Source of the DNA: Nitrospirota bacterium
Lineage (GTDB): Bacteria > Nitrospirota > UBA9217
NCBI GenBank assembly: GCA_963751455.1
Contig: CAVVUN010000015.1
Span: 672,001-736,000, forward strand
Direction: 5' to 3'
Length of the DNA: 64,000 nucleotides
A model generated the notes under the pieces. That model ran no database searches. It was not told the DNA's origin and was given only the letters and a program-made list of their open reading frames with translations. Made by a program: the position numbers and the translations under genes. Positions 7,499 through 62,280 of this stretch are shown piece by piece (within the stretch, counting starts at the first letter, position 1; every line of letters begins with the position of its first letter).

Positions 7499-8908
7499 AT
7501 GTTCTTCCAAAACACCGAAAAATCTATCTTAATTCTCCTCTTCGATCTCATAGCCATGGTTATCGCTATGATTTTCGCCTTTCTCTTAGGATATAAAACC
7601 CCCGTAAGTCTTCTTCTTTATCCGCAATACGCAGGAAGCATTCATACCGTCTTCATTTTTACCGTGATTATATTTTATATTCTTGATCTCTATTCTTTGC
7701 ACAGGTTGCCTGAAATATTTCTTCACCACGTTCCAATAATTGGTCTTGGTCTCTTATTCAGTTCAATACTGGTTACCTTTATATTCTTCTTCTTCCGAAA
7801 CCCCATCCCCCGTGCTGTCTTTATCCTGTTTTACGGTTTTTCATTTCTTTTTATCGTTATCGGCCGCCTTATATTTAACAGGCTGACCATGTCGTCGATC
7901 TTCTGGAATGTTCTGCTTGTTGGTGAGAAGGAACCCAGTGAAAAAATCGCTCAGTTCATAAACGAGAGACAGTATCTAAGACAGCGAGTTATCGGATATA
8001 TATCCTCCGAAAAAATCTCTGGAGACGCGAATACATCAAACCATGATCGTTCTGTTAGCCAGCATGATTATGCAGAAGATTTGAAGTATCTGGGGAGCCT
8101 GAAAGACCTTATGTCTGTTCTTCGGAAAAACAGCGTGAGCCAGGTGATCGTTACGACGTTGAATGTTGATCGGGATATGAGCATTCTCCTGAGAGAATGC
8201 ATGCGGAGAAAGATCCGGATCTCAGACCACAGGCGGGTGATGGAGTATATAGAAGGTATGGTGCCCCTCGACTTGTTGGACGACTACTGGTTCATCTTGT
8301 CGTTGAGTCACACTGATAAAACATATTTCTGGTATATAAAGCGGTCCTTTGACGTTCTGGCCAGCCTTGTCGGCCTCTGCCTTGCCATTCCCTTATTTCC
8401 TCTTGCCGTCATCCTGATAAAACTTGATTCACGCGGGCCCGTCTTTTATTCACAGGAGCGGACAGGCAGGGATGACAAGCCGTTCAGGGTCTGGAAGCTC
8501 CGCACCATGGTTGAGGGCGCGGACAAAAATAACGTTCACTGGACAACCGACAATGATGTCCGTATTACCCGGATCGGAAGGCTGATACGGAAAACCAGGC
8601 TCGATGAGCTGCCCCAGCTGCTCAATATCCTGAAAGGTGAGATGAGCCTGATAGGACCGCGTCCCGAAGCGGTAAGCCTCGCGGATATGTATGCCAGGGA
8701 AATACCCTATTACCGTGAACGTCATAGAGTGACGCCGGGCATTACCGGCTGGGCGCAGATCAATTATCCTTACGGCAATTCGCTTGACGATACTCGGGAA
8801 AAACTGAAGTACGATTTTTATTACGTAAAGAACAGAAGCTTTGTGCTGGATATGGTTATTTTTCTCAAAACGATCCGCATTGTGCTTACAGGAAAAGGGG
8901 CTATATGA
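7499..8908 (+). CDS. Priming polyprenyl-phosphate glycosylphosphotransferase (WcaJ/CpsE-like)
   Basis: N-terminal TM helices; KRSFD, KLRTM, DVRITRIG, RLDELPQLLNILKGEMSLIGPRPE, PGITGWAQ. Confidence 0.93.
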   Translation: MFFQNTEKSILILLFDLIAMVIAMIFAFLLGYKTPVSLLLYPQYAGSIHTVFIFTVIIFYILDLYSLHRLPEIFLHHVPIIGLGLLFSSILVTFIFFFFRNPIPRAVFILFYGFSFLFIVIGRLIFNRLTMSSIFWNVLLVGEKEPSEKIAQFINERQYLRQRVIGYISSEKISGDANTSNHDRSVSQHDYAEDLKYLGSLKDLMSVLRKNSVSQVIVTTLNVDRDMSILLRECMRRKIRISDHRRVMEYIEGMVPLDLLDDYWFILSLSHTDKTYFWYIKRSFDVLASLVGLCLAIPLFPLAVILIKLDSRGPVFYSQERTGRDDKPFRVWKLRTMVEGADKNNVHWTTDNDVRITRIGRLIRKTRLDELPQLLNILKGEMSLIGPRPEAVSLADMYAREIPYYRERHRVTPGITGWAQINYPYGNSLDDTREKLKYDFYYVKNRSFVLDMVIFLKTIRIVLTGKGAI

Positions 8909-36020: not shown

Positions 36021-36098
36021 GTCCCCATCGTCTAGCCCGGCCCAGGACACCGCCCTTTCACGGCGATAACGGGGGTTCGAATCCCCCTGGGGACGCCA
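36021..36098 (+). tRNA. tRNA-Glu (TTC), integration target
   Basis: Anticodon loop CTTTCAC, GGTTCGAATCC T-arm, CCA end. Confidence 0.95.
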
Positions 36099-37428
36099 AT
36101 TTACTTCTGTAACCCACGGATTTCTTAATCAGATTTTCCGTGGGTTTTCTTGTTTCTGGCCTGTTGTGAATGTCTTGTGAATGAATTTCTGTAACACTCC
36201 CGCCGTGCATCTTCCGCAGCATCTCTACTGATCGCTGAACATACTTTTTCGACATCCCTGACGTGCTCTGACCGGCCATCATTTCCATGTCCTTCTCACT
36301 GTGCCCGTTGAGTGCGTACTGCGTCATCGTCGTGTGTTTGGTTGCATTGTACACGTTGACATAAGGAACGCCGGCGCGTTTGCAGGCACGCTTCCAGATG
36401 TCATTCACAACCCAGTTGGAATACCGGGTGCCGAGTTCGTTCGGGAAAGCGATCTCTCGACCAAAGCGGCCTTGGAGAATTGAGGTATCAAAGCGAGGAT
36501 GAAGCGGAATCACGTATTCCTTTCGGTTCTTTCTCGTTTTCAGACTTCGATCAAAATCCAGACTATTCTCAATCCAGACGGTCATTGCCTTCAAATCGAA
36601 GTGCCGCACATCCAGGGCGCAGGCCTCGGACGGCCGCACAGGATGCTTAATGAGAAAGTCGATAATCGCATGATGAACCGGGTTCGTGATAGAAGCGAAC
36701 GCCTTGTCCCGGTCCTCGATCGGCATGACGCGAACCAGCTTCTCGCTGAGTACAATCGGGTCGAAGATCGGAACGATGAAATCACGCTTCATTTTGTGGA
36801 GCCAGTTACAGAAGCCGCGGAGCTGATCCATCACGTTCTTGACCGCCTTATCTGAAAGCGGCTGATCTTTATGGCCTCCGAATGGGATCCGGTATACCTC
36901 AACGAGGTGCTTCTGGAAGCGGGCGATGTCCATTGTCTCGATCTCGAGCATGTTCCGTTCGCTGAAGAATGGGATGAAATGATCCTCGCAATACTGCTCG
37001 ATCTTTCGAATATAGGAGAGCGCCCGTTTCGGTTTCCTCGAGCGAATGTCGCTCAGCCAGGTGATTTTATCAGGCCCGGGATCTGCCGTTTGAAAAAGGA
37101 ACTTCCCTTTGTATTCGTCCAGCTCAGAAGCAAGGTATTTTCTGATATCGAACCGCCGATGCTCAGTCTTGCACACGTCAAGATCGGTTCGGATACTCTC
37201 AATGACTCCATAGGCGAGACTATAACTCGAGAACATATGCCCGGTCTTGTAATACCGGCTGATCACGTAGGGCTTGTGGGTGACTTTATCGTAAAAGAAG
37301 ATGTAGACCTTATCGGGTTTTGTTTGGCAGGTAGGACATATTAAAGCAGGTGCTTTTCCGACAAAGAGCTCCTTGAACTTTCCGGCGCAGACAGGACACA
37401 CTTCGCGGGTACGGACTTGTCCGCTCAT
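36058..37428 (-). CDS. Tyrosine integrase with N-terminal CxxC/CxxC zinc ribbon; reads through attL into the tRNA
   Basis: VRPSEACAL (Arg I), K, YNATKH, MAGQS, KKY; GGAGG RBS before ATG 37428. Confidence 0.88.
   Translation of the reverse strand: MSGQVRTREVCPVCAGKFKELFVGKAPALICPTCQTKPDKVYIFFYDKVTHKPYVISRYYKTGHMFSSYSLAYGVIESIRTDLDVCKTEHRRFDIRKYLASELDEYKGKFLFQTADPGPDKITWLSDIRSRKPKRALSYIRKIEQYCEDHFIPFFSERNMLEIETMDIARFQKHLVEVYRIPFGGHKDQPLSDKAVKNVMDQLRGFCNWLHKMKRDFIVPIFDPIVLSEKLVRVMPIEDRDKAFASITNPVHHAIIDFLIKHPVRPSEACALDVRHFDLKAMTVWIENSLDFDRSLKTRKNRKEYVIPLHPRFDTSILQGRFGREIAFPNELGTRYSNWVVNDIWKRACKRAGVPYVNVYNATKHTTMTQYALNGHSEKDMEMMAGQSTSGMSKKYVQRSVEMLRKMHGGSVTEIHSQDIHNRPETRKPTENLIKKSVGYRSKLASPGGFEPPLSP
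36164..36185 (+). repeat. Arm-type integrase-binding repeat (left)
   Basis: TTGTGAATGTCTTGTGAATGAA; copy with one mismatch at 56075-56096. Confidence 0.75.
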
Positions 37429-37666
37429 GTTATGGCCCCCCTCCTCAGTCTTCTGGTGGGGGTGATTGTAGGCTATGTCCACGCCTAAAGTCAAGCTGCC
37501 GTCCTCGATTGTCCTCAACCGCACTGGATTTGGAATCCAGCGGGGGATTTTAGAAATCGCAAATTCAAAGAGTTACGACCCTTATGCCACCTGTATGCTC
37601 GCGACCTTTTTACTGAAACCCGCTGGCCATTCGCCGTAATTACCGTCCATCTTTCAATATTGAGTT

Positions 37667-39223
37667 CTAGACGGTTCTATCCGACCCTATCACCTGTGAA
37701 GTTGCACCCAGCTGTATGAGCGCCTGGTTTGCATTGAGTGCTCCGGCGATCGCGGTAGCCCAGATGTTACCGCCGGCCTTCGCAGTATCAGCTCTGATCT
37801 CCATTGACGCGATAAGCGCCCTCACCGCCAATTGGGCCTGCTGCGCAAGTATCTGCGTCTGGAACTCAGCTGCCCCTTTCGTAAGTCCTGCGACGGCCAC
37901 CCCGACATCCGCACGCGCCTTCTGCAGTCCGACCTCTGCCGAGTACGCCCCGACCTTGGCCCCGAACGCAGAACCTTTCGCGGCTATCACCGAGGCAAGC
38001 CCTTCGGCCTTGGCTTTGAGCGCCTGCATATACGAGTCGAATTGCTTTAAGATAGCCATGTTCTTCTCTGCCGTGGCCTTGAGTTTTTCAACCTGCATCA
38101 TGGCGTCCGTTTTAGCGTATTCAAGGCTGAGTCCGTAATCGGTCTTTTCCTTGTCAAGCTTGGCCGTAAACGCCTTTAAAAGCATCTCGTTCTTGGAAAT
38201 CTGATGCCCTAAAAGGGCAAGCTGCACATCAGCAGCCTTTATGAGCGCCGATACCCGTGCAGCATACTTGGATATCCATGCGTTATAGAAGCCGAGAGAA
38301 AATTCGAAGACCGACCGCATGGCCGTCAGCGCCCGATTCTTCACCTGGTCGTAATGCTGGACCTCGACAGCCAGGACCTGAAGCATGCTCGACGTGGTGA
38401 ACTGCTGGTTCTGCAGGCTCATCTTTGCCTGGTCTTCGGCTACCGACCGGGACTCGTCCATTTTCTTATACCCATACTCGGTTTCGAATGCAGTGACTGT
38501 CTGTTTAAGAGTGCCCTGCGGCAGATCCCACCCAAAACGCGCATGATCATCGGCCATCTTCACGACCGTACGCTGCCGGATAAGTTCGTCACGCTCGGAC
38601 ATCCGATCCCATATCTGTCGCTCAACCGTGGGGTTGATACCCGTTACGCCGGCGGCCATGTCCGCAGTAAGCTTCGCATAGAGTGCGGTTGCGCTTATTG
38701 ACGAAAGGCTCTCGTTCTCTGCCTGGTATAGGCTGTCCTTATACGAGGTGATCGCGTCCTGGATAACGGTCATATCGTCCGACATCTTGATATCATTAAG
38801 GCTATCGGGATCAAAAAGGTCATCCGGGTTCGGTAAATCGATTTCTTTAAAATCCTTCAGGTCTTCCGTTGTCGGCGGCGCGTCGACTGTCTTGATATTA
38901 AGTGAGTCGTACGGATCCAGCGTGCCAGAAGGAGTTGGCGGCGTAGCACCGTTAAAGTCAATAGCTCCGATCTGCGACTCCTGCTGTGCGGTGTCAAGAT
39001 TGGCCCGGACAGTAATCGTCGTTCTGGGGTCGCTGATCAGCGTCTCCGGACTCGGCGGCGTCCATTGAAGCGCCGGAATCTCTACATTCGGCAGGAATAA
39101 TGAGGTTGATATCTGCTGCAGGGCTGACAGAAACTGCGCTGCGTTATCTACGTTTTCCGTTACATTCTGGTTGAGCGTTGCAAGCCGCTCGCTAACCGCC
39201 GCATTGACTTCTTCAACTGACAT
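37667..39223 (-). CDS. ~520-aa Ala-rich coiled-coil protein, possibly virion-associated
   Basis: Long helical ORF with GGAGG RBS, downstream of the terS-like gene; function is inferred only. Confidence 0.55.
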   Translation of the reverse strand: MSVEEVNAAVSERLATLNQNVTENVDNAAQFLSALQQISTSLFLPNVEIPALQWTPPSPETLISDPRTTITVRANLDTAQQESQIGAIDFNGATPPTPSGTLDPYDSLNIKTVDAPPTTEDLKDFKEIDLPNPDDLFDPDSLNDIKMSDDMTVIQDAITSYKDSLYQAENESLSSISATALYAKLTADMAAGVTGINPTVERQIWDRMSERDELIRQRTVVKMADDHARFGWDLPQGTLKQTVTAFETEYGYKKMDESRSVAEDQAKMSLQNQQFTTSSMLQVLAVEVQHYDQVKNRALTAMRSVFEFSLGFYNAWISKYAARVSALIKAADVQLALLGHQISKNEMLLKAFTAKLDKEKTDYGLSLEYAKTDAMMQVEKLKATAEKNMAILKQFDSYMQALKAKAEGLASVIAAKGSAFGAKVGAYSAEVGLQKARADVGVAVAGLTKGAAEFQTQILAQQAQLAVRALIASMEIRADTAKAGGNIWATAIAGALNANQALIQLGATSQVIGSDRTV

Positions 39224-39629
39224 ATACACCTCCATTTAATGTTGCGTTTTGTTAACATCTTCAGCCTTACTCAACGGGTCCGACGCGCTGCCAGGCAACC
39301 CGCTACTGCCCATGTCATCTAGGCAATAAATCTGAGATTTTCACATGAACTATATTTAGCTGCGACCTTAACAAACCTTAACAACCTCACTGCTTCAAGA
39401 GTCGGAACGTTAGCTTTTGTTAACAGGCCATTGGTTTCCGACCATTTCAGACAAAGGCGACTTGATCCCTGGTTGCGAGCCGTACACGATTCCACATCTT
39501 CTCGATAAAAATATCGGTAAATATCGGTTTCAAAGCTCACTAAGTCGAGAATCTTTCACGTTAATTTCGTGGCAACGAGTTTTAAACAATGCGGCCAGTG
39601 ACTCTCCAAAGTGTCGGTTTTTCTCCGGG

Positions 39630-39899
39630 TCAGTCCTCGTTTCCCACCTTGTCCGACTTCCCGATGAAAGCAAGCTCTTCGTCGGTCACATGCATTCCTT
39701 TTCGGAGATAACCTTCGATCAACGCTCTCCGTACCCGCGGTCTGTTCCGGACCAGGCATTGCTTGCTGCGCGCAGTTGATCTCTTGTAGCCGGCATCCAG
39801 CATAGCGCCCGTATAACACTCGCCGTCGAGAAGGGCCTGCACGAGCTTCCGCTCTTTTTCGGAGAGGGTCTCAATTGTCTTGGGTTTGTCATTGACCAT
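39630..39899 (-). CDS. Terminase small subunit-like HTH protein
   Basis: LSEKERKLV..LL.G...T.AM.DAGY...TA resembles the TerS N-terminal LTxKQ..F...AA..AGYS..TA pattern; GAGG RBS. Confidence 0.55.
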   Translation of the reverse strand: MVNDKPKTIETLSEKERKLVQALLDGECYTGAMLDAGYKRSTARSKQCLVRNRPRVRRALIEGYLRKGMHVTDEELAFIGKSDKVGNED

Positions 39900-40359: not shown

Positions 40360-40944
40360 TTATTGAAGTGCCTGTACCGCTTCTGGAAAGGTTGCCCCGT
40401 ATAATTTCCGGTAAACGTCGATCGTGTCCGCTGTCTTGCCGCAAGAGAAGCAGTAGGCGAAATTATTCTTGATGAACATGCTCGGCCTGTGGTCTTCATG
40501 AAAGAGGCAGAGAGCCATTCCGCGGCGCGCATCAATGAAATTATCTATCGGGTATGCTTTCGCTCGCTCGATCATGTCAGGCGTGACGGTGTCTTGTTTC
40601 GGTTTCTGTCCGAATGCTTCGAGCCCCTTTTCGAGCAGATAATCACGCTCTCGCTTTAATTTATCCTTGTTCTTCATCAGTCTGGCTACGCGGTCCGCTA
40701 TCATGTGGCCGCTCATCAAATTTGTTTTGTGCTTCTCATAGCTTATCGATGCATCGAGCAGATGGTCTTGAATTTCTGCGATCTGTTCCATTAGAGCGAA
40801 AATCCGCAACCATTCCCCCTCGCGGGCCATCTCGTTTTTATGTTCGTGAATCCGCGCGCGGACTCTCGGCATATCTACAGCGTTTCTCCACTTTGTGAGC
40901 GCTGCATCACTTATCACCATTTCCTGATATTCGAGGTCGGTCAT
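40360..40944 (-). CDS. CHC2 zinc-finger protein (primase Zn-binding domain, no TOPRIM)
   Basis: CLFHEDHRPSM...YCFSCG...DTID......TF.EAV..L. Confidence 0.85.
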   Translation of the reverse strand: MTDLEYQEMVISDAALTKWRNAVDMPRVRARIHEHKNEMAREGEWLRIFALMEQIAEIQDHLLDASISYEKHKTNLMSGHMIADRVARLMKNKDKLKRERDYLLEKGLEAFGQKPKQDTVTPDMIERAKAYPIDNFIDARRGMALCLFHEDHRPSMFIKNNFAYCFSCGKTADTIDVYRKLYGATFPEAVQALQ

Positions 40945-40966: not shown

Positions 40967-41812
40967 TCAGCTTTTCATGGTGCATCTGTCTGTATTCCGG
41001 CTCAATTGTTCTTTCCCTGAGATCCTGAGATAAGGTCCTATCTTCGTGACGTTCACCTTCTTGTTCTTCGCTCCTGTAGCTCGGCACTTCGCAACCTTCA
41101 GAACTGCGTTGTCTCCGCCATCAAGCCGCCATATAAAAACAACCGTGTCCGCTTCCTTGCCGATCATGCCCGAATCCCGGAGACTCCTGATCGTCGGTTC
41201 CTCTGCCGCTTCGCTTCTATTCGTGTGAACGATCAAGACAATGATCAGATTTTCGTTTATCGCCAACAATTTGAGCTTCCGGCATATCCGGCCCAGATCG
41301 TTCGACAGGTTCCCGGTTTCTACCTGGTCGGACAAATAGTGGAGGTGGTCTATAAAAACGGCGTGAATCGTTTTATATTTCAGCTTTGCCTCCCTGATTC
41401 GTTCGCCGATCCAAGTCAACGTGCTCATCTCAAGTTCTGCCGGTAACATAAAATACGGTACTGCCTCGCCGAATTTTGCTAGAAATTCATCCGGCCTTTC
41501 TTCATAACTAAACCACAGGCATCCTGCGTCCTGTTCTGAAAAATTATTTGTCAGTGTACGAGCTAAAAGTGTTTTCCCTTCTCCCTCATCCCCGCTCAGG
41601 ATTACGAGCTGCCCGCCGCGGCAATCCCGGATATGATCGTCAAGGCCCGGGATCTTGGTTCTGAGGACTATTGTCGGTTCGAACTTCTTTTCAGCGTGGA
41701 GCTGATCAACCTTATCCCAGGAGGTAATCACCCGACCGGGTCCGCAATAGCTCTTGAGTTCCGCGTCTGCCTTTCGGCGTTCGTTGTCTTTGATGATCTC
41801 TTCAGGGTTCAT
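40967..41812 (-). CDS. DnaB-like SF4 helicase (C-terminal ATPase domain only)
   Basis: GDEGEGKT, FSYE, FIDHLH, LKLLA, LRDSGMIGKEADTV, KVAKCR. Confidence 0.88.
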   Translation of the reverse strand: MNPEEIIKDNERRKADAELKSYCGPGRVITSWDKVDQLHAEKKFEPTIVLRTKIPGLDDHIRDCRGGQLVILSGDEGEGKTLLARTLTNNFSEQDAGCLWFSYEERPDEFLAKFGEAVPYFMLPAELEMSTLTWIGERIREAKLKYKTIHAVFIDHLHYLSDQVETGNLSNDLGRICRKLKLLAINENLIIVLIVHTNRSEAAEEPTIRSLRDSGMIGKEADTVVFIWRLDGGDNAVLKVAKCRATGAKNKKVNVTKIGPYLRISGKEQLSRNTDRCTMKS

Positions 41813-42987
41813 GCGTATTGCCTCTTGTATCCGGGAACCATGCTGCTCTGTGATTCCTGCCTTTCAGGATTCACATGCTCCTTGTAAATATGAATCTTAT
41901 TCTTCCCGGTACCGCTTACGATAAACCGCACAGCGTCCTTAATTCCGAACCGCGGCTTTGTCGCTGCAAAATTACGAGCCGCCAAAATAGCGTTATCCTG
42001 TTCCTCGATATTTAGGCCGTTGAAAGCCGCTGCTGCTTCCTGCTTAGAACCCTTACGCCCGTCTTCTCTCGCTGGGTACGCCGTCCAGAATAATAGAAAC
42101 TTGTCGCTGTATTGCGGGTCTCCCTGTTCTGTCGGCTTTTTTGGTGTTCGTGTCTTCTGGCGCCTTTGGCGTTCGGGCCCCGTGACCTGGTGAGTTCGGC
42201 CGGCTTTCGTGGGATTCGCGTCTGTCTCTGATCCGGACAAAATAAGACTCTGTGCGTGCGCAGGAGCTAAATTTACAGGCTCTGTTCCATCAAGACGTAA
42301 AGAGATATCAGGTTTGCCCTTTGATTCGGTCTTTTCACGATCGATATCAGGCAGCGTTGAACCGTCTTCCGGTGAAACGCATTCTTTTGTTTGTTGTATA
42401 AGTGTATATTGTGGTCCCGGTTTTCCGTTACTGCTGTCCGGTTTTCCGTTACTACCTACAGCTGAGTAACGCTTTTCCGTTACAGTAACGGTTTTCCGTG
42501 ACTTCCCCTTTTGGGAGATGTTTTTCCACTTCGTATAGTCTTTTTGAAAGCCTACTTTTGCTCCTGATCGTGTCAGGATATTTCTCTCGCAGAGATCCTT
42601 GAAGGCCTCATATACCCGCTGCTTTTTAAGGCCGGTTTTTTCAATAAACTGCTCGTATGCAATCCAATCAAGCTTCTTGTCCCATCCATAAGTTTTCCGG
42701 AAAACGACCATCAGTATTCGCCAGCCATGGCCACTGATTTTCACCCTGGCAAGAGCTTCAAGGATCTCATCGGCGATCTTCGTATAGCCGTTCTGAAGTT
42801 GAGGGCTTGCACCCATCCTCATTTCCGATTCTGGTGCCCCTGCTTTGATTGCCAGCCGTGAAGAATCTATCTCTGGCAGCGGTGGTAGAAGGGCGCCGAT
42901 CTCCGACACTGCCCGTCCTTCTTTCATGGCACTAAGCGCCCAGTGCGGGAGGTGGAATCTATCATGATGTTCATCTCTGGCCAGCAT
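41809..42987 (-). CDS. Lambda O-like phage replication initiator
   Basis: NGYTKIA.EILEAL....S....RI...V.RKTYGW.KK.DWI...QF...TG; C-terminal FW..YP...K..A motif; GGAGGTG RBS. Confidence 0.85.
   Translation of the reverse strand: MLARDEHHDRFHLPHWALSAMKEGRAVSEIGALLPPLPEIDSSRLAIKAGAPESEMRMGASPQLQNGYTKIADEILEALARVKISGHGWRILMVVFRKTYGWDKKLDWIAYEQFIEKTGLKKQRVYEAFKDLCERNILTRSGAKVGFQKDYTKWKNISQKGKSRKTVTVTEKRYSAVGSNGKPDSSNGKPGPQYTLIQQTKECVSPEDGSTLPDIDREKTESKGKPDISLRLDGTEPVNLAPAHAQSLILSGSETDANPTKAGRTHQVTGPERQRRQKTRTPKKPTEQGDPQYSDKFLLFWTAYPAREDGRKGSKQEAAAAFNGLNIEEQDNAILAARNFAATKPRFGIKDAVRFIVSGTGKNKIHIYKEHVNPERQESQSSMVPGYKRQYA
42417..42502. repeat. Iteron array, probable replication origin within the O-like gene
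   Basis: Four TTTTCCGT(T/G)AC units, the first two exact CCGGTTTTCCGTTACT 21 bp apart, next to an AT-rich tract at 42381-42410. Confidence 0.8.
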
Positions 42988-42994
42988 ATCAAGC

Positions 42995-43234
42995 TCACCT
43001 CCTCGCAGCATACATCTTCGCACGCAAGACCTTATAGGCTGCGATAAAATCTTGGATCGGCACGCTTTCGTTCCCGTTGTATTTAGCGATGATAGCATTA
43101 ACTTCGTCAGAGGAGGCGTGAACGAAAACTGACAGATCCCGGTCAACTTCGAGGTTAGGCGCTTTTCGGGTGATTGCGAAGATCGCGGAGGACAGAAAGA
43201 TATCTCTTGTCTTGAACTGTTGGCTGGTAGGCAT
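42995..43234 (-). CDS. DUF5659-like small phage protein
   Basis: F.TRDIFLSSA...F...Y.....V....F...YK.LR pattern; AAGGAG RBS; first gene of the replication operon. Confidence 0.55.
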   Translation of the reverse strand: MPTSQQFKTRDIFLSSAIFAITRKAPNLEVDRDLSVFVHASSDEVNAIIAKYNGNESVPIQDFIAAYKVLRAKMYAARR

Positions 43235-43299
43235 TATCATTCTCCTTTCCTTTTGCATTGTCAAAATTACAAATACACTACATACAACAGACTTTTGAA

Positions 43300-43955
43300 G
43301 CGGGAGCTCGACAACGAGGAATTATCGTGAGTTGTCGATACTCCGAGCGTGGCTGCTACTGCGAGTCGCTGAGCGGCTTCGCCTTATCGGTGCCAAGTAC
43401 TCCGGATCCGATGGCCTGTATTTGCCGAGCGGCGCTCGGATTCGCGTTGCCGTCGACCACTGCGAGACCTGATTCGATCGGCGAAAAATATCATTGTTTC
43501 CCGTGTACCGCAGGAGCACTATTTCGGCGAGCCCTATGGGTCGTCGCCCTCGGTGCGGAGCCAAATTCGGTAGTCCGCACTTTCCAATTCTCTCTGAGCC
43601 CTGAGTGTTTTGGGGAATCATGCCGGAAGGGAGCCCCGCGTCCGGGGGAATCCACTTTCGAGTCAATGAGCCCTGCTCCTGGGAAGTCAAAAAGAACATA
43701 ATCTCTGCGTTCAAAAAAACAGGGTAGCCCACCAAGTAATACGTGTGACAGCACGTAGAGAAGCTTGAGCTTCTGCCTGGTGAACTACCCTGAATTTTTG
43801 ATGAGATCGCTGTCACGACCATAGTCCTCAAGACCCTTTTGCCGTACTATTGGGAGCGGCAAGGCCAAAAAAAAAGCCAGTTCAAAATTCCCTTACGGGA
43901 CTTGAACTGGCTCGTGTGTGCGAGGTGCAGTTAGTAATTTCTATTCAATTGTGAA
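43300..43955 (-). ncRNA. Structured leader RNA of the replication operon
   Basis: Many hairpins, two stem+U-tract terminators, two loop/target complementarities, long-range CAGGAGCA/TGCTCCTG pairing. Confidence 0.55.
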
Positions 43956-43958
43956 GAT

Positions 43959-43987
43959 ATTAAAGCAGAAACTGACCGCCTTGTCAA
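43959..43987 (-). promoter_or_regulatory. sigma70 promoter for the leader and replication operon
   Basis: TTGACA-17-TTTAAT on the minus strand. Confidence 0.65.
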
Positions 43988-44261
43988 TTATTTTTTTTGG
44001 CTTTAAAAGTCCAGGATCCGTTCACGTCCGTCTGTTTCTGAGGAAATTGGCCCTCTTTCTCGAGGCGAACGGCTGCAGAGCGAGATCGTTCACATGCGGG
44101 CACACGGACCATCGGGTCAACCCCGGTCAGGCGGGCCTGCCGCAACAGGAACGCCTTGCGGAGCATGTCCGATGGTCCGTGCTGCAGGGCTGCTACAGCA
44201 AAATCGCCGATGCTCTGATGAAACTCCCGGAGGAGCAATGGCGCCACAGAGGCGATGTGAA

Positions 44262-44423
44262 ATGAGCATGCTTCAACGAAGCACGATATTCACAGTTCTC
44301 TGGACACTCTTCTTGATCTGCCCGGTCGAGCTCGACGCATTCTTTGCTCTCTTCTGGCTGGTTATGCTGATTGTCGGGTTGGCTATGATTGTCATAACAC
44401 CGATAAGGTGGACATTGAAGTAA
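44262..44423 (+). CDS. 53-aa small membrane protein
   Basis: Two hydrophobic segments; GAGG upstream; GC hairpin at 44467-44489 downstream. Confidence 0.45.
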   Translation: MSMLQRSTIFTVLWTLFLICPVELDAFFALFWLVMLIVGLAMIVITPIRWTLK

Positions 44424-44603
44424 CTGCAGGCTGTTTGCTTCACTTGGCTTGTAACTAAAAAGAAGGTGGCCCCCGGTTTCCCGGGGGCCAGATCGTCTCT
44501 CTTCAAAAAGTTTACAATAAAACCCGCTAAAGTTTACAATTCCTCGGACTCAGGCCTACCCCAGACTCGAGATCGTGGCGTACAGGACAAGATTTTTTAT
44601 GGC

Positions 44604-45898: not shown

Positions 45899-46384
45899 TC
45901 ATCGTGATTCTTCCTTTTGATGTTTGGTATGTTTTTGATATATGTGGACACAAAGGCCGTTGTTGGTGTGAAACGCCTTGTCGCATTGCGTACACTTATG
46001 ATCACGTGTATACCTTTCGGGATGTTCAGCGCGCCATTCCTGCAATTTTTTTTCGTTCTGTTCGCGCCATTCAGCGTGTTGTGTGGTCAGGTGTATATGG
46101 ATGCCCGGACATTTTGTTGTGACAAAATCGCAAAGTGGACATTTATATATATCTAATCGTTTGTCATGAATTATTTGAAGTTCAGAGGAAGACACCGTTT
46201 CGCCTGGACCAGAACGATTGTCTGTTGGAAGTGACAGTAGAATATCTTCTATTGAATGAAACGCAGCACTGTAAATATTAAGTGTCCTTTCCAACCGCTC
46301 TCGAATTAAATCATCTGTTTTTTTACGTTGTTTAATAATTGCAGTTCTTCTTGCAGATCTTTTAAACGGGATCAGCTCGCCCAT
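45899..46384 (-). CDS. Protein with two classical C2H2 zinc fingers
   Basis: YKCPLCDF...IHIHLTTQH and HKCTQCDKAF...LCVHIYQKH. Confidence 0.75.
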   Translation of the reverse strand: MGELIPFKRSARRTAIIKQRKKTDDLIRERLERTLNIYSAAFHSIEDILLSLPTDNRSGPGETVSSSELQIIHDKRLDIYKCPLCDFVTTKCPGIHIHLTTQHAEWREQNEKKLQEWRAEHPERYTRDHKCTQCDKAFHTNNGLCVHIYQKHTKHQKEESR

Positions 46385-46580: not shown

Positions 46581-49500
46581 TCATTCCCCTAAGTCTGGCA
46601 AAAAGAAAGTGCGTTCCGATTCTGAGTATTCCCCATACTCCTTCTCGCGGTCCCAAATGCGCAGCCGTATAAAGAAGGCGAGCTTGCGCCCTAACCGTTC
46701 CATTGCGTCGGTGAGCAGCTCCTGATCGATCATGGTCGCCGTGCCGCAGCGCGTCGAACCTCCCTTCGGGTACAGCGGAGTCCAATTGTCGTTCCATATC
46801 CGAGTTCTCGAGGCAATCTTCCCGTCGGATGCGATACAGTCGATACTCTCCCGTGTACATCGGATTTCGGTTTTGGGAACCGTATAAGAGGCGGGAACCT
46901 TCAGCCCTATGGACAAATAGTCGCTTTGCCATGTACCAAACGGTATTGGTATAAGGGAATTGCAGACAGCAACCTCGTCACCCGTTTTACCTCCAGAGCT
47001 TGCTTCCTCGATCGTGATCTCTTCTGGCGGCCCCTTGAGTTCGAAAGTGTCATTAACAAACAGTAATAAATTTTTTTCGTAGAGGTAGGCACTATCAGGT
47101 AGTTCATAATCAGGCGTTATGAGGTGGGCACTGAGGGTAAGGTCGGCATACTTCTGCACCAATGACGTTACTGGCGTATGGAGCGACACGAGCATCATGC
47201 CTTCAGCGCGTGCTGTCTGCACGAGCTCGCGGACGATAGGCGAGAAATTAGCGCCGGGAGCGCAGAATCTTTCAGGGAAGTCCGAGAGCCACACCGGCCT
47301 TGCGACAGGTTCGACATCGAAGAGACCTGCAATCCCGTGAACGATGTCGACGCAAGAGCCTTCCGCGATCCTCTGGGGCATACGCAACTCGCTCACGGCA
47401 TAAGCCAGAGTCCGCAGATAAGCGGAGCGATAGACCTCGCTCATACGCTGCCAGTACTGGCCAATGATTCCCGCACGTGCGTCTGATACGTTGTCGAAAT
47501 AATACGGGTAGCGCGTGTAGTGCGTGCCCAGCTTGTCTCGTAAGGTTTTCCACTCATAGGCCCAGTGCTGGAGAAAGGGGTAGCCGCTCAAGAGTTCCAG
47601 CTTTGTCAGATTGTTCATGAGGATCGGTGGAACATGCGCGGTCTTGTGCTCCTCGAAGTAGCTATCGCTCTCGAAGTCGGCCGGAGCCCGTCCCGAGTGA
47701 GCCTGGCGCCATCCGCCGATGCCGTGCCCCTGTCCATAGGTCCGCTCCAGAATGATGTCGGCGAGAATCGAAGGGCAATGGAGGCGCGATGCGAGCACCG
47801 TGCGCAAGGGTCTACCGTCTGGCGATGTCAGGAAGACGATCGTGAGGATCTGACAGACTTCAGACTCGGTATTACACTGATCGAGATAGTCCAAAAGCGC
47901 GTCCTCCGTTGAGGACCGCGTCCCCGGATCATTGAGAAGGTTGCGGATTTCCTTGGCCGTTCTCCAGCGCGACATTGGCACTGGCCATTTCAGCCGCTCG
48001 AAAAGGAAGGAAAGCGCGAGAGGGGCCGAGGTTGCTAGGAACCATGGTGTCGCCGGGATCGGCTGCTCTCGAACCTCCTCAACCAACGTGTCAACGAAGG
48101 CAGCCGTGATCTTGTCGGCAAGTTCCACCTGCCCGACGAGCATCAGGAAGCGCACCAAGTATTTGTAACCAATGACGAAACTGTAGCGTCGGCGTCGGTA
48201 ATAAGGAAGGGGCACCGACGTGTCCTTGATGTATTGGAGCCAGCGATCCGGATAGTGCTTTGCAGCGAGCCTAATTCGCGTCATTATTTGAGCATCTGAT
48301 TCATAGTAGCTCCAGCCATGGCGATGAATGTGAGCTTTGACGAGCCATGGGTATGCAGCGTCCTTACCTTCGACAGCGAGGCTCACGAGGAAAGCTTCGT
48401 CTAGGACTTCCTCAGCGCTGTAGGTTGTTTCGCTCGTGTCGAAATAGGAGAGGATCGATTGCAGAGCTTTTGATGTTTTGCCCTGGCTCTTCCAGTGATG
48501 GAGCCACTTCGCCATGAATTCCCTGCGGCTCCTGTAATGAAGGGGCACCGCTGCTTTAGCGACGGCGGCGAAATCCTCATAGCTGAATGATGTGGGATCG
48601 ACCTTAGCAGCCTCTTTCTCCTGCTCGGAAAGCTCTTCTTCCTTAGTCTCTTTGATTTCGAGGCCAACTTTGGGCGGTCGGCCTAGAAAGACATTCTGAT
48701 TTTCTAGAAGCTCTTGGGCGGGCTGTTCATTGACCGCTCGGCCCTCGAGAACCCCTAGAGTTCGCTCGTCTAGGAATGTGCGGGCCAGTGCAGCACCTTG
48801 CGGAGATTTGAGATCCATAATCTTCGCGCATTCGTTCAGACACTCGTCGGCATAGGAATATTCGTCCGCCGAAAGGTGATGTCTATAGATGGATGGCAAG
48901 TGGTCGGGTGCAACCTTCGCCACGACTTCGATAAGTTCAGAACGCACGTGATTCGTATCGTCGCCGTCTGTGAATTCCGTGATCATCTCGATAATCGGGA
49001 CGAGCGTTTCGACGTGTGTCCGCGCGACAGCCGGTTTCCTCGCGCTCAACTCGACAACGGCATCGAGCACGTCCATCGCGTGGAGGTCTTTATGCGAGCC
49101 ATATCCGACAAGGCATTCGGCAGCGTGTGCGAGAAACTCGGCCTGTCTTCCATCCTCGTAGAGAAGCGCCATGTTTGCGAGTTCCGTCCAGCGCCCTGAA
49201 CGCTCGCTGAAATCCGTCACCTTCCCTGACAGCGCTTTCGCCTCGTCACCAAGAAGCACCGCCACACCATCTTTATCGAGGAGAGGAATCCTGTTTCCCA
49301 CATTACGTGTCGCCCAGATCGTGTCAGACCAATGGTCGGATTGGCGCGCTATGCTCAGCTCCGAGACAGGCACCCTAGTATTGCTGGGATCGGAAAGTCC
49401 AAGGAAATGAAGATCGACACCGATACGCCGGAGAGCCTCGCTGAAGGCTCGATATTGTGCGGCTTCTTTTTCGGGAGATGGACCCCAATGGACAGGTTCC

Positions 49501-52412
49501 AGATCAGCAGTAGCCGCATACACGGCTGAGAAGGTTGGAACAAGGCGGCCTGCTGCAATGTCCCGTGCAATCTCTTGGAGTTTTGCCGTTCCCTGCGGTA
49601 GCCATCCCAGATCGGCGCTGCCGAGACCCGGATGGATCATTGAATAATCGCCGCCCTTCGCACAAAACCCGATGTACAGAGCGGTCCAAAACACGTCGTA
49701 AAAGAAGGATATGACGTCCGGGTTCTCTCCGAGTGAATAGTGCTCCCGGATGAGGTTGTTGGGCACCGGAGGGATATACACATCTATCTTTGCGTCGCGA
49801 TCGCGCCAGAGGAAGAAGCATGCGGCAAAGGCCGAGAGGGACTCGTTACCGAGAGGAACGAGTTCTCTGACATCCACGCCTTTGAAACTGCCCGCCCGTA
49901 TGAGCGCGTCGTGGATTAACCGCCGCTGATCGTTCCACTTGGCGCCGCCTAGCGTTTTGCGGATAAGCTGAAGCCCCTCGATGTTTTGCGCATCACCAAG
50001 CAGACGGATGAACCTCGAGACATGGGGCTCTGGCTTCTTGAAGCCGCGCGCATAGTTTAGCGTGCGCCGCACTGTCTCCTTATCCATCAGCGCACTAACC
50101 GAGAGGAGGTGATCCGAAAGCTCCGTGAATTCCCGCTCGGGACGGTGCCGCAGCACGATCCATGCATTGACGCGGCGGGCCAGTTCATTGAGGCATGCTG
50201 GCAAGATCTGAAGTGACATTTCTTTTGGCCCGAGTCGGGCGAGTTGTGTTACTTCGCTGTCGGTCAAATTGTGGATGTCGTCTAGAAGATTCAGCGTCTG
50301 CTGACGGTTGTCGGAAACCGCAAGCGCAGTCGCTCGGTAAGCGGCAAAATCACTCGATTGAAACTCGCGGGCGTTTGAAACGCGGGTCTTCAGACTGCGA
50401 AGAAATACTGTTCGCGACAAGTCTGCGTCTTTGAAGGTCTTCTCTTCAGCGACGGCGAGTATATTTTCAATCTGCTGATCGGGCCAGCCCTTCGCGAAGG
50501 ATTCGACGACCCAATCCCGCGTTGCGCCTACGAACAAATCTTCGAAATGGCCTGCTTGCGCCCCTGCAAGCCATAGCCAGCCCCATCGCCAGTATTCAGG
50601 CGCATCATTCGCGAGCCAGTTGATGATCTTGGGCAGGAGTGCTTGATAACTTTCCGCATGGTCATCCCGCTCCCGTACCCATGCGAAGATGCTCGAGTGG
50701 AAAGGGACCATGCCGACATTGCGTGGCTCCAACAGGTGGTCGATCTGGCTGAAGTCCCCTAGCACCTGCCTTATGCCGAGGCTTGGCCAGAAGAAGTCCG
50801 ATCCCGCGAGCATGTGGAGAGCGTTCTTGGCATCCGCGCTGAGGTGAACCCAGAGCCCCCGATAGTAGGTACGGATATCGCCATCCGGACACGGCGGGAG
50901 CAATTGAATTTCCTCCGCAGACGTTGGGCGGCCTGCGCGGATAACACCCTCGTATGCGTAAATCAAATGCAGCGGGTGGCCCTGGCTGATATTAAAAAAC
51001 GCTGTCGCGATCTCGTCGATCATTTCAGAACGCCGCTCGGGAGGCGGATCAAACCGGAAGATGAGTGGACGCGCCTTGAACTGCTGCACCACCCAGCGGT
51101 GGACCGCGACCTCGTCCATACGCGGAATCTCGCTCCAGTCATCGTCATTCGCGATCGTCAGCAGCTTGCCGGGCAGCTGCTCGTCACTGACGCGCTGCGT
51201 TCCGACGATAAGATTGACATTTGGCGGTAGCGGGAGCAGTTCGTTGAAGAGGTGATTGAGTTGGTCGACGCGCTGCGTGTCGCGCCAAACGTGATCGAGT
51301 CCATCGACGATGATATAAAGCCGCTGACCTTTGCCGGCGAGGTTGGTTGCAGCAATCCCGATGGCGGCCCGCAACTCGCTAGGATCACCCTTGACGCCGG
51401 CCATGGCTTCAGGATGGCGCACATAGAGCTGATCCATTAGCGAGGTCGAAATTTCGATAAAAGAGCTGCGGTTGGAACTCGAGTCCTCCGCTGACAAAAA
51501 GTAGTGGTGTCGCGTTATGGCCGCGCCTTCCTTTTGAAGCTCCTGGGTCAGATAGCTGAGGTAGGTGCTCTTCCCGCGCCCTGGCGTTCCCCAAAGGATT
51601 GTGATCGGATTGTCGTCCCTCGCGATGCGTGCACGAAAGGTCTTGTGGAAGGCCTCGCTCGGCGGGCTGTAGCCGTCGAGGACGATAAAATCCTGTCGGA
51701 TAGGTTGCGGGCGGCGCTTCGTAATGAGCTGTACAAGATGCTCCCGCAGAATATGTCCATCGGGTTCAGGCTGGTTTTTGCGGGTCGCCCAACGACGTAC
51801 GCTCTCGCGGAAAAGAAGCCAACCCGCCGAATCAGTGTCTGTAGGTACGAGCTGATCGCGAAGATAGTCTTCGTATCTGTCGAGGTCCGGCATACCTCCT
51901 AAGAAATCGAACGTACTGAAGAATGTTTTAGCCTCGGCGGCGCCTCCGCATGCGCTCTCAACTGACTCGCGAAATTCCTTTGGTAGGAGGTCAAGGTCGA
52001 CCCGCATGCCTTTCAGGCACTTTGCGAACTCCCCAGACGGTATGCGGTTTGTTTTAAGACCAGCACTGTGGATTGGACCCATCGCTGCCACACGGGCAAG
52101 GGACTTCGCCCACTTTTCGAGCATCGCCGTCCCTTTTTCAGTTTTGGCGAGAAGCCAGTCCCAATCCAGCTCGTAGCGGCCGGGGTCGACCGTGAACTTG
52201 ACCTGTACGAGCTCGTAGGAACCATCTTTACGTGCAGCCACAACGTCGTCGAGCGCTCGGTAAGCCGTGTCGTCGGCCTCGAGCAGCACCCACGCGTAGA
52301 GCTCAGGGTCTCGGTACTGGCGAATAAGCACCTCGATACCGACGAGGTCTTGGTACTCGAAAGCTGCTCTTGTTATCGCGGCGGGCTTTATCCGGGATTT
52401 TGCCATTGTCAT
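46581..52412 (-). CDS. PD-(D/E)xK nuclease - STAND/NACHT NTPase - helical sensor protein (Avs-like anti-phage candidate)
   Basis: N-terminal FEYQD...LDDVV...VQVK; Walker A GTPGRGKST; Walker B YIIVDGLD; GHPL; long helical C-terminal region; intact 1943 aa. Confidence 0.8.
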   Translation of the reverse strand: MTMAKSRIKPAAITRAAFEYQDLVGIEVLIRQYRDPELYAWVLLEADDTAYRALDDVVAARKDGSYELVQVKFTVDPGRYELDWDWLLAKTEKGTAMLEKWAKSLARVAAMGPIHSAGLKTNRIPSGEFAKCLKGMRVDLDLLPKEFRESVESACGGAAEAKTFFSTFDFLGGMPDLDRYEDYLRDQLVPTDTDSAGWLLFRESVRRWATRKNQPEPDGHILREHLVQLITKRRPQPIRQDFIVLDGYSPPSEAFHKTFRARIARDDNPITILWGTPGRGKSTYLSYLTQELQKEGAAITRHHYFLSAEDSSSNRSSFIEISTSLMDQLYVRHPEAMAGVKGDPSELRAAIGIAATNLAGKGQRLYIIVDGLDHVWRDTQRVDQLNHLFNELLPLPPNVNLIVGTQRVSDEQLPGKLLTIANDDDWSEIPRMDEVAVHRWVVQQFKARPLIFRFDPPPERRSEMIDEIATAFFNISQGHPLHLIYAYEGVIRAGRPTSAEEIQLLPPCPDGDIRTYYRGLWVHLSADAKNALHMLAGSDFFWPSLGIRQVLGDFSQIDHLLEPRNVGMVPFHSSIFAWVRERDDHAESYQALLPKIINWLANDAPEYWRWGWLWLAGAQAGHFEDLFVGATRDWVVESFAKGWPDQQIENILAVAEEKTFKDADLSRTVFLRSLKTRVSNAREFQSSDFAAYRATALAVSDNRQQTLNLLDDIHNLTDSEVTQLARLGPKEMSLQILPACLNELARRVNAWIVLRHRPEREFTELSDHLLSVSALMDKETVRRTLNYARGFKKPEPHVSRFIRLLGDAQNIEGLQLIRKTLGGAKWNDQRRLIHDALIRAGSFKGVDVRELVPLGNESLSAFAACFFLWRDRDAKIDVYIPPVPNNLIREHYSLGENPDVISFFYDVFWTALYIGFCAKGGDYSMIHPGLGSADLGWLPQGTAKLQEIARDIAAGRLVPTFSAVYAATADLEPVHWGPSPEKEAAQYRAFSEALRRIGVDLHFLGLSDPSNTRVPVSELSIARQSDHWSDTIWATRNVGNRIPLLDKDGVAVLLGDEAKALSGKVTDFSERSGRWTELANMALLYEDGRQAEFLAHAAECLVGYGSHKDLHAMDVLDAVVELSARKPAVARTHVETLVPIIEMITEFTDGDDTNHVRSELIEVVAKVAPDHLPSIYRHHLSADEYSYADECLNECAKIMDLKSPQGAALARTFLDERTLGVLEGRAVNEQPAQELLENQNVFLGRPPKVGLEIKETKEEELSEQEKEAAKVDPTSFSYEDFAAVAKAAVPLHYRSRREFMAKWLHHWKSQGKTSKALQSILSYFDTSETTYSAEEVLDEAFLVSLAVEGKDAAYPWLVKAHIHRHGWSYYESDAQIMTRIRLAAKHYPDRWLQYIKDTSVPLPYYRRRRYSFVIGYKYLVRFLMLVGQVELADKITAAFVDTLVEEVREQPIPATPWFLATSAPLALSFLFERLKWPVPMSRWRTAKEIRNLLNDPGTRSSTEDALLDYLDQCNTESEVCQILTIVFLTSPDGRPLRTVLASRLHCPSILADIILERTYGQGHGIGGWRQAHSGRAPADFESDSYFEEHKTAHVPPILMNNLTKLELLSGYPFLQHWAYEWKTLRDKLGTHYTRYPYYFDNVSDARAGIIGQYWQRMSEVYRSAYLRTLAYAVSELRMPQRIAEGSCVDIVHGIAGLFDVEPVARPVWLSDFPERFCAPGANFSPIVRELVQTARAEGMMLVSLHTPVTSLVQKYADLTLSAHLITPDYELPDSAYLYEKNLLLFVNDTFELKGPPEEITIEEASSGGKTGDEVAVCNSLIPIPFGTWQSDYLSIGLKVPASYTVPKTEIRCTRESIDCIASDGKIASRTRIWNDNWTPLYPKGGSTRCGTATMIDQELLTDAMERLGRKLAFFIRLRIWDREKEYGEYSESERTFFLPDLGE

Positions 52413-52562: not shown

Positions 52563-53198
52563 CTATAACCCAAATTGCAGCCGTGAAACTGCATCGATCT
52601 TCTTTTCATCGGATGTGTGGAGATACTTTTCGGTCGTCCGAATGTGACTGTGGCCTAAAAGTTCTTGAACTGTTCGCAGGTCAACGCCCTTGTCCAAAAG
52701 GGATGTAGCAAAGGTATGTCTCGTCGTGTGCGGCGTGATCCGCTTCGTGATGAGCGCCGCCTTCTTTACCCTCTTCATAAGGCAGTCAACGGCCTTGTGC
52801 GTGAGGGGCACCGGTTCGCAGTTGCCGCGCTCACCCAGGGTGAAGAAGAGCGGCCGGGCCGTGGCCGGTGCGCCGGCTCTGTCCTCGAAAAGATGAGGCA
52901 TACTGCTCTTGAGGGCCTTCTGATAATCGAGGACCGCCTCCACAACGTCGTTGGTGAGAGCAACGCGCCGTTGCTTCTTTCCCTTGCCGATCACGTCTAC
53001 AACCGTCTGATTCCGATATGTGGTCAGGTTCTCGATACTCAGGCTGCATACCTCGGCCTTTCTGAGGCCCGAGGAAAGCATAAGGAGTAGCAGGGCATAA
53101 TCACGCTTGCCCTTGAGGGTCCGCCGATCCGGGACCCGGAGGAGGGCTTTGACTTCATCCGCAGTCAAAAAATCCGATGGTCTCTTTATCTTTTCCAT
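52563..53198 (-). CDS. Minimal tyrosine recombinase (catalytic domain only, resolvase-like)
   Basis: RD.ALL.L...GLRKAE, GKGKK.R, HTTRHTFAT, LLGHSHIRTT.KY. Confidence 0.9.
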   Translation of the reverse strand: MEKIKRPSDFLTADEVKALLRVPDRRTLKGKRDYALLLLMLSSGLRKAEVCSLSIENLTTYRNQTVVDVIGKGKKQRRVALTNDVVEAVLDYQKALKSSMPHLFEDRAGAPATARPLFFTLGERGNCEPVPLTHKAVDCLMKRVKKAALITKRITPHTTRHTFATSLLDKGVDLRTVQELLGHSHIRTTEKYLHTSDEKKIDAVSRLQFGL

Positions 53199-55923: not shown

Positions 55924-56202
55924 ATTTCCCTCCTGAATTTGATGTTCACATTGAATCGTGATTGCCATGCATTCTAGCAGAGAGAAGCAAACTGTTCGGG
56001 CCAGACGAAAGCGAATCCAGCAGGGATTGCGGTTGGGGAGCTTCGGGCGATGAGGCGGCTCTGATCGAGTCATCTTGTGAACGTCTTGTGAATGAAAAAA
56101 AGGTCTATCCGTATGTTCTTTTTGCTCTTAACTGCTGGAAATATTGACTTTTTCTATTCTTCCTCAGGGGGTTCGAATCCCCCTGGGGACGCCAATCAAT
56201 TC

Positions 56203-62249: not shown

Positions 62250-62280
62250 ATTCGAACCCCCGTTATAGCCGTGAAAGGCG
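62250..62280 (-). other. Inverted tRNA-Glu fragment
   Basis: Reverse complement cctttcacggc(t)ataacgggggttcgaat matches the tRNA-Glu anticodon-to-T-loop with one mismatch. Confidence 0.75.

Follow-up and report, generated by a model that had tools for sequence, protein, structure and literature searches.

The C4 and CI antisense RNAs are processed by RNase P, and the P4 gene kil has a toxic role. Immunity exerted by RNA alone has been characterized in a few enterobacterial phages, namely P1/P7, P4 and N15 (PMC3632133). In P4, the CI RNA is processed from the leader transcript, pairs with seqA and seqC and brings about premature termination (PMC4825925). Two loop-loop pairs are needed both for attenuation in pIP501 (PMC3834814) and for the repression of rot by RNAIII (PMC2837412).

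In a 64,000-nt stretch of a Nitrospirota genome (the window, i.e. the whole stretch of DNA analyzed here), a sequence-only reading had drawn a parallel between the C4/CI RNAs and a branched RNA encoded ahead of a replication operon. The parallel holds as regards a small three-way-junction RNA in the replication leader of a satellite, matching sites on its own transcript and the lack of a cI-like match, but it does not extend to membership of the family. The comparison with Rfam that had been proposed as a check (C4, c4-2, isrK) returned no match in the window at the gathering threshold and none at E-values up to 10 within 43200-44600, and searches of the organism's own genome with RF01695, RF02944 and RF01394 yielded nothing at this locus. 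By analogy with P4 CI and P1 C4, this RNA, which is not a member of their family, likely keeps the replication genes off and may thereby confer immunity.

Results

The host element and its replication operon

The RNA lies within an element of 20.1 kb that is integrated at a tRNA-Glu gene and bounded by a 30-bp repeat (30/30 identical) of the tRNA-Glu 3' end (Table 1). Downstream of the RNA and on the same strand follow, in this order, the genes for the DUF5659 protein, the replication protein O-like initiator (Rep O), the DnaB-like helicase, the CHC2 zinc-finger protein, the terminase-small-subunit-like protein, a 522-aa protein and the integrase. The best relatives of the Rep O-like initiator are found in Nitrospirota. 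The closest DUF5659 proteins, two of which are encoded on contigs of 12-14 kb, share 52-69% identity with the one encoded here, whose structure model (pLDDT 92) gave no clear match in a fold comparison (best Z 4.0). The sequence-only reading had noted the absence of a visible repressor, and scans with Pfam, PHROGs and NCBIfam indeed detected no cI-like match among the element proteins scanned. No capsid match was obtained among the scanned proteins either, and the two absences together fit a satellite.

Several further features of the element and its surroundings were recorded. The 522-aa protein (37667-39235, minus strand) is rich in Ala and Gln, matches phrog_10969, is weakly related to a protein of the sister element G249 and is possibly a virion-associated ejection protein. 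A 1943-aa NACHT/STAND ATPase with an N-terminal nuclease-like stretch (46581-52412, minus strand) is likely Avs-type anti-phage cargo; its residues 253-536 match PADLOC Avs1b at E 6.7e-10, far under the Avs1b cut-off, and residues 11-128 give a PD-DExK-type match. The ATPase gene lies between those of a second, XerC-like recombinase (52563-53198, minus strand) and a zinc-finger protein (45899-46384, minus strand). This recombinase is 87% identical to its counterpart in G249, where the zinc-finger gene adjoins the recombinase gene. Divergent from the switch runs a 53-aa hydrophobic frame (44262-44423, plus strand) with a coding-like codon score and no family match, possibly an exclusion or membrane peptide, and the plus-strand frame at 43918-44265 returned no homologue. 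An 11-nt word, TTGTAAACTTT, is directly repeated at 44508-44539 (minus strand), just upstream of a terminator and overlapping a plus-strand promoter-like site, and may be an operator. Outside the element, an inverted 29-nt piece of the tRNA-Glu 3' half (62250-62278, 28/29 identical) is possibly the scar of another integration.

Table 1. Features of the element and of the RNA locus, in window coordinates.
Feature	Position	Strand	Description
att repeat, left (tRNA-Glu 3' end)	36071..36100	+	30/30 identical to 56167-56196
Tyrosine integrase	36058..37524	-	Pfam PF00589, E 1.1e-10
Terminase-small-subunit-like protein	39630..39899	-	phrog_641, E 6.9e-6
CHC2 zinc-finger (primase-type) protein	40360..40944	-	Pfam PF01807, E 5.3e-9
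DnaB-like helicase	40967..41812	-	Pfam PF03796, E 4.7e-20
Phage replication protein O-like initiator	41809..42816	-	Pfam PF04492, E 8.9e-26
DUF5659 protein, first gene of the putatively controlled operon	42995..43240	-	Pfam, E 2.6e-6, 27.6 bits (cut-off 23.6); atlas
164-codon open frame	43322..43816	-	Starts at GTG 43816, crosses the RNA and T2, ends ~80 nt before DUF5659; translation uncertain
U7, predicted terminator T2	43713..43719	-	Abuts the closing stem; U7 read in the sequence, termination putative
Three-way-junction RNA	43720..43792	-	17-bp closing stem and hairpins x' and y' (6 bp each); predicted fold
Loop y', GCTGTCAC	43752-43745	-	Second hairpin tip of the junction RNA; from sequence
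Loop x', CTCAAG	43769-43764	-	Hairpin tip of the junction RNA; from sequence
A/U-rich linker, 12 nt	43793..43804	-	Predicted cleavage site that would free the junction RNA
Target hairpin y	43805..43820	-	Loop UGACAG; site y opens with GTG, where the 164-codon frame starts; predicted
Target y, GTGACAGC	43816-43809	-	Exact complement of loop y'
Target hairpin x	43823..43835	-	Loop UUGAG; overlaps Shine-Dalgarno-like GAGGA 43829-43825; predicted
Target x, CTTGAG	43832-43827	-	Exact complement of loop x'
T1, strong intrinsic-terminator-like hairpin and U9	43867..43911	-	Hairpin 43911-43876, U9 43875-43867; upstream of the switch
Candidate promoter TTGACA-17-TTTAAT with upstream A-tract	43959..43987	-	TTGACA 43987-43982, TTTAAT 43964-43959; putative
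att repeat, right	56167..56196	+	Repeat match to left att

Candidate promoter and first terminator

A promoter had been proposed at 43987-43959. Both boxes and their 17-nt spacing are present, but the -10 box lacks the A at its position 2 and the site was not listed by the consensus scan; judged from its boxes, it is a plausible promoter. The hairpin of T1 has a folding energy of -21.9 kcal/mol, with a z-score of -3.65 for the fold of a 96-nt stretch. No internal promoter passed the consensus scan and, since T1 is strong and lies upstream, supply of the junction RNA would therefore depend on leak or antitermination. A role in trans for the leader preceding T1 was considered and rejected, as its downstream complement is not significant (26 of 40 shuffles as good).

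A branched RNA whose loops match two upstream sites

The coordinates that the sequence-only reading had assigned to the promoter, the hairpin with its U-tract, both sites, the junction and the loops all agree with the DNA, and its multibranch fold is predicted as a three-way junction directly followed by U7. The 73-nt junction folds with -40.4 kcal/mol on the minus strand (z -7.18; 0 of 200 shuffles as good), versus -35.5 kcal/mol on the plus strand, and all of its 29 pairs, three of which are G-U, are intact. The 3' end of the RNA carries no CCA-like tail. As had been observed from the letters, the two hairpin tips are exact complements of the upstream sites, in the same order and at similar spacing (16 nt between targets, 17 nt between loops): loop x' (CUCAAG) matches target x (CUUGAG), a pairing of 6 bp and -7.4 kcal/mol, and loop y' (GCUGUCAC) matches target y (GUGACAGC). 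Both exact complements were jointly present in 8 of 200,000 shuffles of the 140-nt upstream stretch. The complementarity is confined to the loops and does not reach beyond the loop-closing pairs, and the target hairpins and the junction hairpins have different stems. An inverted duplication is therefore excluded, which bears out the earlier remark that a simple one would not give this arrangement; a match limited to the loops of unrelated stems is instead what is expected of loop-loop recognition.

Using an architecture scanner that was designed with knowledge of this case, 393 two-hairpin folds preceding a U-run were identified in the host genome, 12 of them with both loops matched upstream (at least 5 nt each) in order. 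A summed loop match of 14 nt was reached by two of the 393, this RNA and one -25 kcal fold with U-rich loops. Within the element, no exact y site occurs downstream of the RNA, and the best downstream sites are at chance level (for y', -12.0, with 21 of 200 shuffles as good; for x', -7.2, with 191 of 200). A downstream site near 43457 was likewise rejected as a target, being at chance level. The junction RNA is a real, well-formed and uncatalogued RNA element, present in single copy.

The targets are predicted hairpin loops on a candidate ribosome-binding site

Overlooked by the sequence-only reading, each of the two targets is predicted to sit in a hairpin loop of its own. Since the targets are themselves loops, the predicted contact consists of two loop-loop kisses, and two tandem same-order loop-loop matches of at least 6 nt arose in 0 of 150 leader shuffles. 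Folding indicates that hairpin x is weak and competes with alternative folds. The GAGGA overlapped by target x, whose duplex with the anti-Shine-Dalgarno sequence amounts to -5.9 kcal/mol, lies 8 nt ahead of the GTG with which target y begins. A transcript that stops at 43745 has a minimum-energy fold in which y and y' form a 9-bp helix around the 5' arm of the closing stem. RNase E/G and Rho-N domains are present among the host's proteins.

The same GTG (43816) is where the database gene call for the 164-codon frame (P0035) begins. This frame stays open in 6 of 5000 shuffles when the reading frame is fixed, and in 57 of 5000 when any of the three frames is accepted. Its codon score, -0.18, is non-coding-like; seven of eight other element genes score between -0.02 and +0.20, and the eighth -0.22. 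A protein search with its product found the self match only and the atlas gave no match, and no match to the Ash family (PF10554) was obtained at E up to 1, nor to any other family.

Homologue searches and sister elements

Searches for the RNA by blastn in its own genome and 60 relatives gave short chance matches only. A covariance model was built from one sequence (that of the window, the same DNA in locus L001), and is consequently of low sensitivity. It returned one match among 63 family genomes (E 0.56), rejected as a plain terminator, one unrelated match among 150 phylum genomes (E 0.34), a best E of 2.3 in 100 of 102 Rep O loci and a best E of 0.39 in seven loci searched with filters off. 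The architecture scanner identified 254 folds in the 102 Rep O loci (1.07 Mb), with a summed match of at least 11 in 22 of them, none above 12 and none alike. Three patterns run against IMG/VR gave 1, 3 and 5 matches, all of which lack the fold; one candidate from this collection (L034) was rejected because it lies inside a protein-coding frame. The best E-values obtained by blastn against phages and plasmids were 0.1 and 0.2, respectively, and DUF5659-led scans of viral and genome contigs produced no confirmed case. Two metagenome DUF5659 loci were also rejected: one is genuine and offers 331 nt upstream, with no such RNA, and the other is spurious. None of these searches, the one-sequence model being insensitive, gave a homologue in which loops and targets could be compared for covariation. 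No description of this RNA was found in the literature searched, PMC12360218 included; work on the c4-2 and int-alpA motifs (Weinberg 2017, PMC5737381) may bear on its novelty.

Three sister elements (G249, G032 and G011) were identified among 400 phylum genomes, and the junction RNA is absent from all three. In G249 and G032 a protein gene lies upstream of DUF5659. In G011 a promoter, a terminator and a structured leader with a 90-codon frame precede DUF5659, constituting a different RNA without tandem kisses. Across the 400 genomes DUF5659 was matched in 13, and an int-alpA RNA lies upstream in two of these 13 loci. The slot preceding DUF5659 is thus occupied by exchangeable control modules.

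The G011 leader (L049:850-1420, on contig C8) is a different candidate RNA switch, combining a good promoter, a strong terminator and a structured region (z -3.35) whose helices exclude one another; its 90-codon frame ends 83 nt before DUF5659, and Rfam at gathering gave no match in this region. The int-alpA RNAs (RF02996, L014:710-776 and L021:2555-2620) score above gathering and lie upstream of a protein gene followed by DUF5659.

Discussion

Proposed mechanism and alternatives

We propose, with confidence about evenly balanced between belief and doubt, that the locus is a self-targeting antisense attenuator keeping the replication operon of the integrated satellite off. Starting from the sites, loop matches, U-tracts and ribosome-site overlap present in the DNA, and from the predicted folds, we infer the remaining steps as follows. 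Transcripts from the 43987 promoter would mostly stop at T1, and those that escape would form hairpins x and y and then the junction, whose 17-bp closing stem and U7 would act as terminator T2. For IsrK, a comparable first terminator is described as being read through in part (PMC4825925). In a cell free of the RNA, a ribosome would load at GTG 43816, run into the closing stem and unwind its 5' arm, so that T2 would fail to close in time; alternatively, nascent y' may pair back onto y, enclosing the 5' arm and making T2 late. With T2 not closed, DUF5659-repO-dnaB would be transcribed. Terminated transcripts would be cut in the A/U linker, and a junction RNA of ~80 nt would accumulate. The free RNA would then kiss x and y in trans on new transcripts, blocking both ribosome loading and cis pairing and allowing T2 to close. 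The outcome would be maintenance of the integrated state, together with immunity to incoming elements whose loops have identical letters.

The proposed attenuator is favored by the location of the RNA, which precedes a Rep O-DnaB operon within an element that is flanked by att repeats and gave no cI-like match. With the targets merely 12 nt upstream, cis pairing would nonetheless be easy, and the anatomy does not require action in trans. Unlikely, in our estimate, but to be taken seriously is a purely cis-acting double-kissing attenuator, in which x' and y' are bound by the x and y of their own transcript, thereby tuning how efficiently T2 works or masking the ribosome site, and a helper-phage or host factor flips the switch with no free RNA in trans. 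The short linker and the matching spacing of targets and loops (16 and 17 nt) would suit it, as would the cis y:y' helix, which is the minimum-energy fold at an intermediate transcript length, and the lack of both downstream targets and a CCA-like end. Against it, the trans-acting form in P4 is a stable, terminated RNA that exposes two loops (PMC4825925), and with a lock working only in cis an element without a cI-like match would have no obvious means of distinguishing its first entry from its integrated state.

The position of the targets, covering both the Shine-Dalgarno-like site and the GTG of an unusually long frame, would also agree with an antitoxin-like translation lock, where the RNA blocks only translation of a toxic or regulatory, Kil/Icd-like 164-codon product and leaves termination unaffected; a2/b2 of P1 are in fact annotated as repressing icd-ant translation. 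We consider this improbable, because full-length translation would require read-through of T2, which lies within the frame, and the frame shows non-coding-like codon use, no Ash (PF10554) or other family match and a self match only. Very unlikely, finally, is that the locus is just a terminator, ordinary or decayed, whose loop happens to be branched and whose loop matches are coincidence or a non-functional relic. Such a terminator would account for a single copy with no conserved relative, and the shuffles tested a pattern chosen after it had been sighted; their outcome (8/200,000 and 0/150), the centering of both targets in hairpin loops, the 29/29 intact junction pairs and the G-U pairs favoring one strand nevertheless speak against it.

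The self-targeting antisense attenuator, if it works, would show that a satellite from a distant phylum uses a different build, suggesting that the logic arose more than once. Its lock of 130 nt, in which two short loop pairs can be swapped, would make a compact orthogonal attenuator. It may even represent a new family of RNA-only satellite immunity switches, probably of Nitrospirota, that arose apart from C4/CI, a suggestion we advance tentatively and with rather more doubt than belief. In such a family the RNA would be both terminator and repressor, placing two same-order kisses on the Shine-Dalgarno sequence and start codon of a frame that runs through the RNA itself, and its loops would serve as a two-part password. 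For the present it is one well-formed instance.

Comparison with described RNA switches

The build of the C4/CI type, a three-way junction of ~75-80 nt with a long closing stem and two hairpins, is predicted here as well (73 nt, 17-bp stem), and the position is shared, in the leader of a satellite operon that it would control, with complementary sites on the same transcript. In C4/CI the order is nested, and of the two antisense stretches one occupies the second hairpin loop and the other the 3' junction strand. At this locus both stretches lie in hairpin loops in the same order as their targets and the junction strand is 3 nt long; nor is a second target set (a2/b2, seqC) found at the ribosome site of the next gene.

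Like the RNA described here, P4 CI (Rfam C4 RF01695, isrK RF01394) is a small junction RNA in the replication leader of a satellite, complementary to its own transcript (PMC4825925, PMC3632133), and in P4, too, an annotated long frame crosses the region of the RNA (NC_001609, CDS 8168-8584). In our reading of the P4 sequence, targets lie both upstream and downstream, are nested, and one antisense stretch falls outside a hairpin loop, whereas here the targets are only upstream, in the same order and matched loop to loop, and U7 follows the stem of the RNA itself. The C4 RNA of P1/P7, with which the c4-a1b1 and c4-2 motifs are grouped, is likewise a junction RNA, of 77 nt, with an upstream target in a hairpin loop, and the P1 targets are annotated as blocking translation of a leader-proximal gene, a likeness to the ribosome-site overlap seen here. 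P1 a1 and a' (UUGACAG/CUGUCAA) share a core with y and y' (GUGACAG/CUGUCAC), although this 6-nt core may be due to chance. The P1 order is nested (a1 b1 ... b' a' ... a2 b2) and that of this locus parallel; a' of P1 lies in a junction strand and its first hairpin ends in a UUCG tetraloop (PMC2864571), while both stretches here occupy hairpin loops. P1 C4 moreover controls icd-ant under the C1 repressor.

Gifsy-1 IsrK resembles this locus in having a promoter, a short terminator-ended RNA and a long leader that carries an upstream frame and is reached by partial read-through (PMC4825925), but it activates in trans (PMC4825925), and the leader preceding T1 has no significant downstream complement. 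The opposite-strand, fully complementary antisense RNA of the pIP501/pT181 type has no equivalent at this locus, where the complement is on the same strand and in the loops only. pIP501 RNAIII and S. aureus RNAIII-rot also make contact through two loop-loop pairs at a time, and the outcome is attenuation or a block of the ribosome site (PMC3834814, PMC2837412). The former is a cis-encoded antisense RNA and the latter an unlinked regulator, whereas the Nitrospirota RNA shares a strand with its targets and lies downstream of them.
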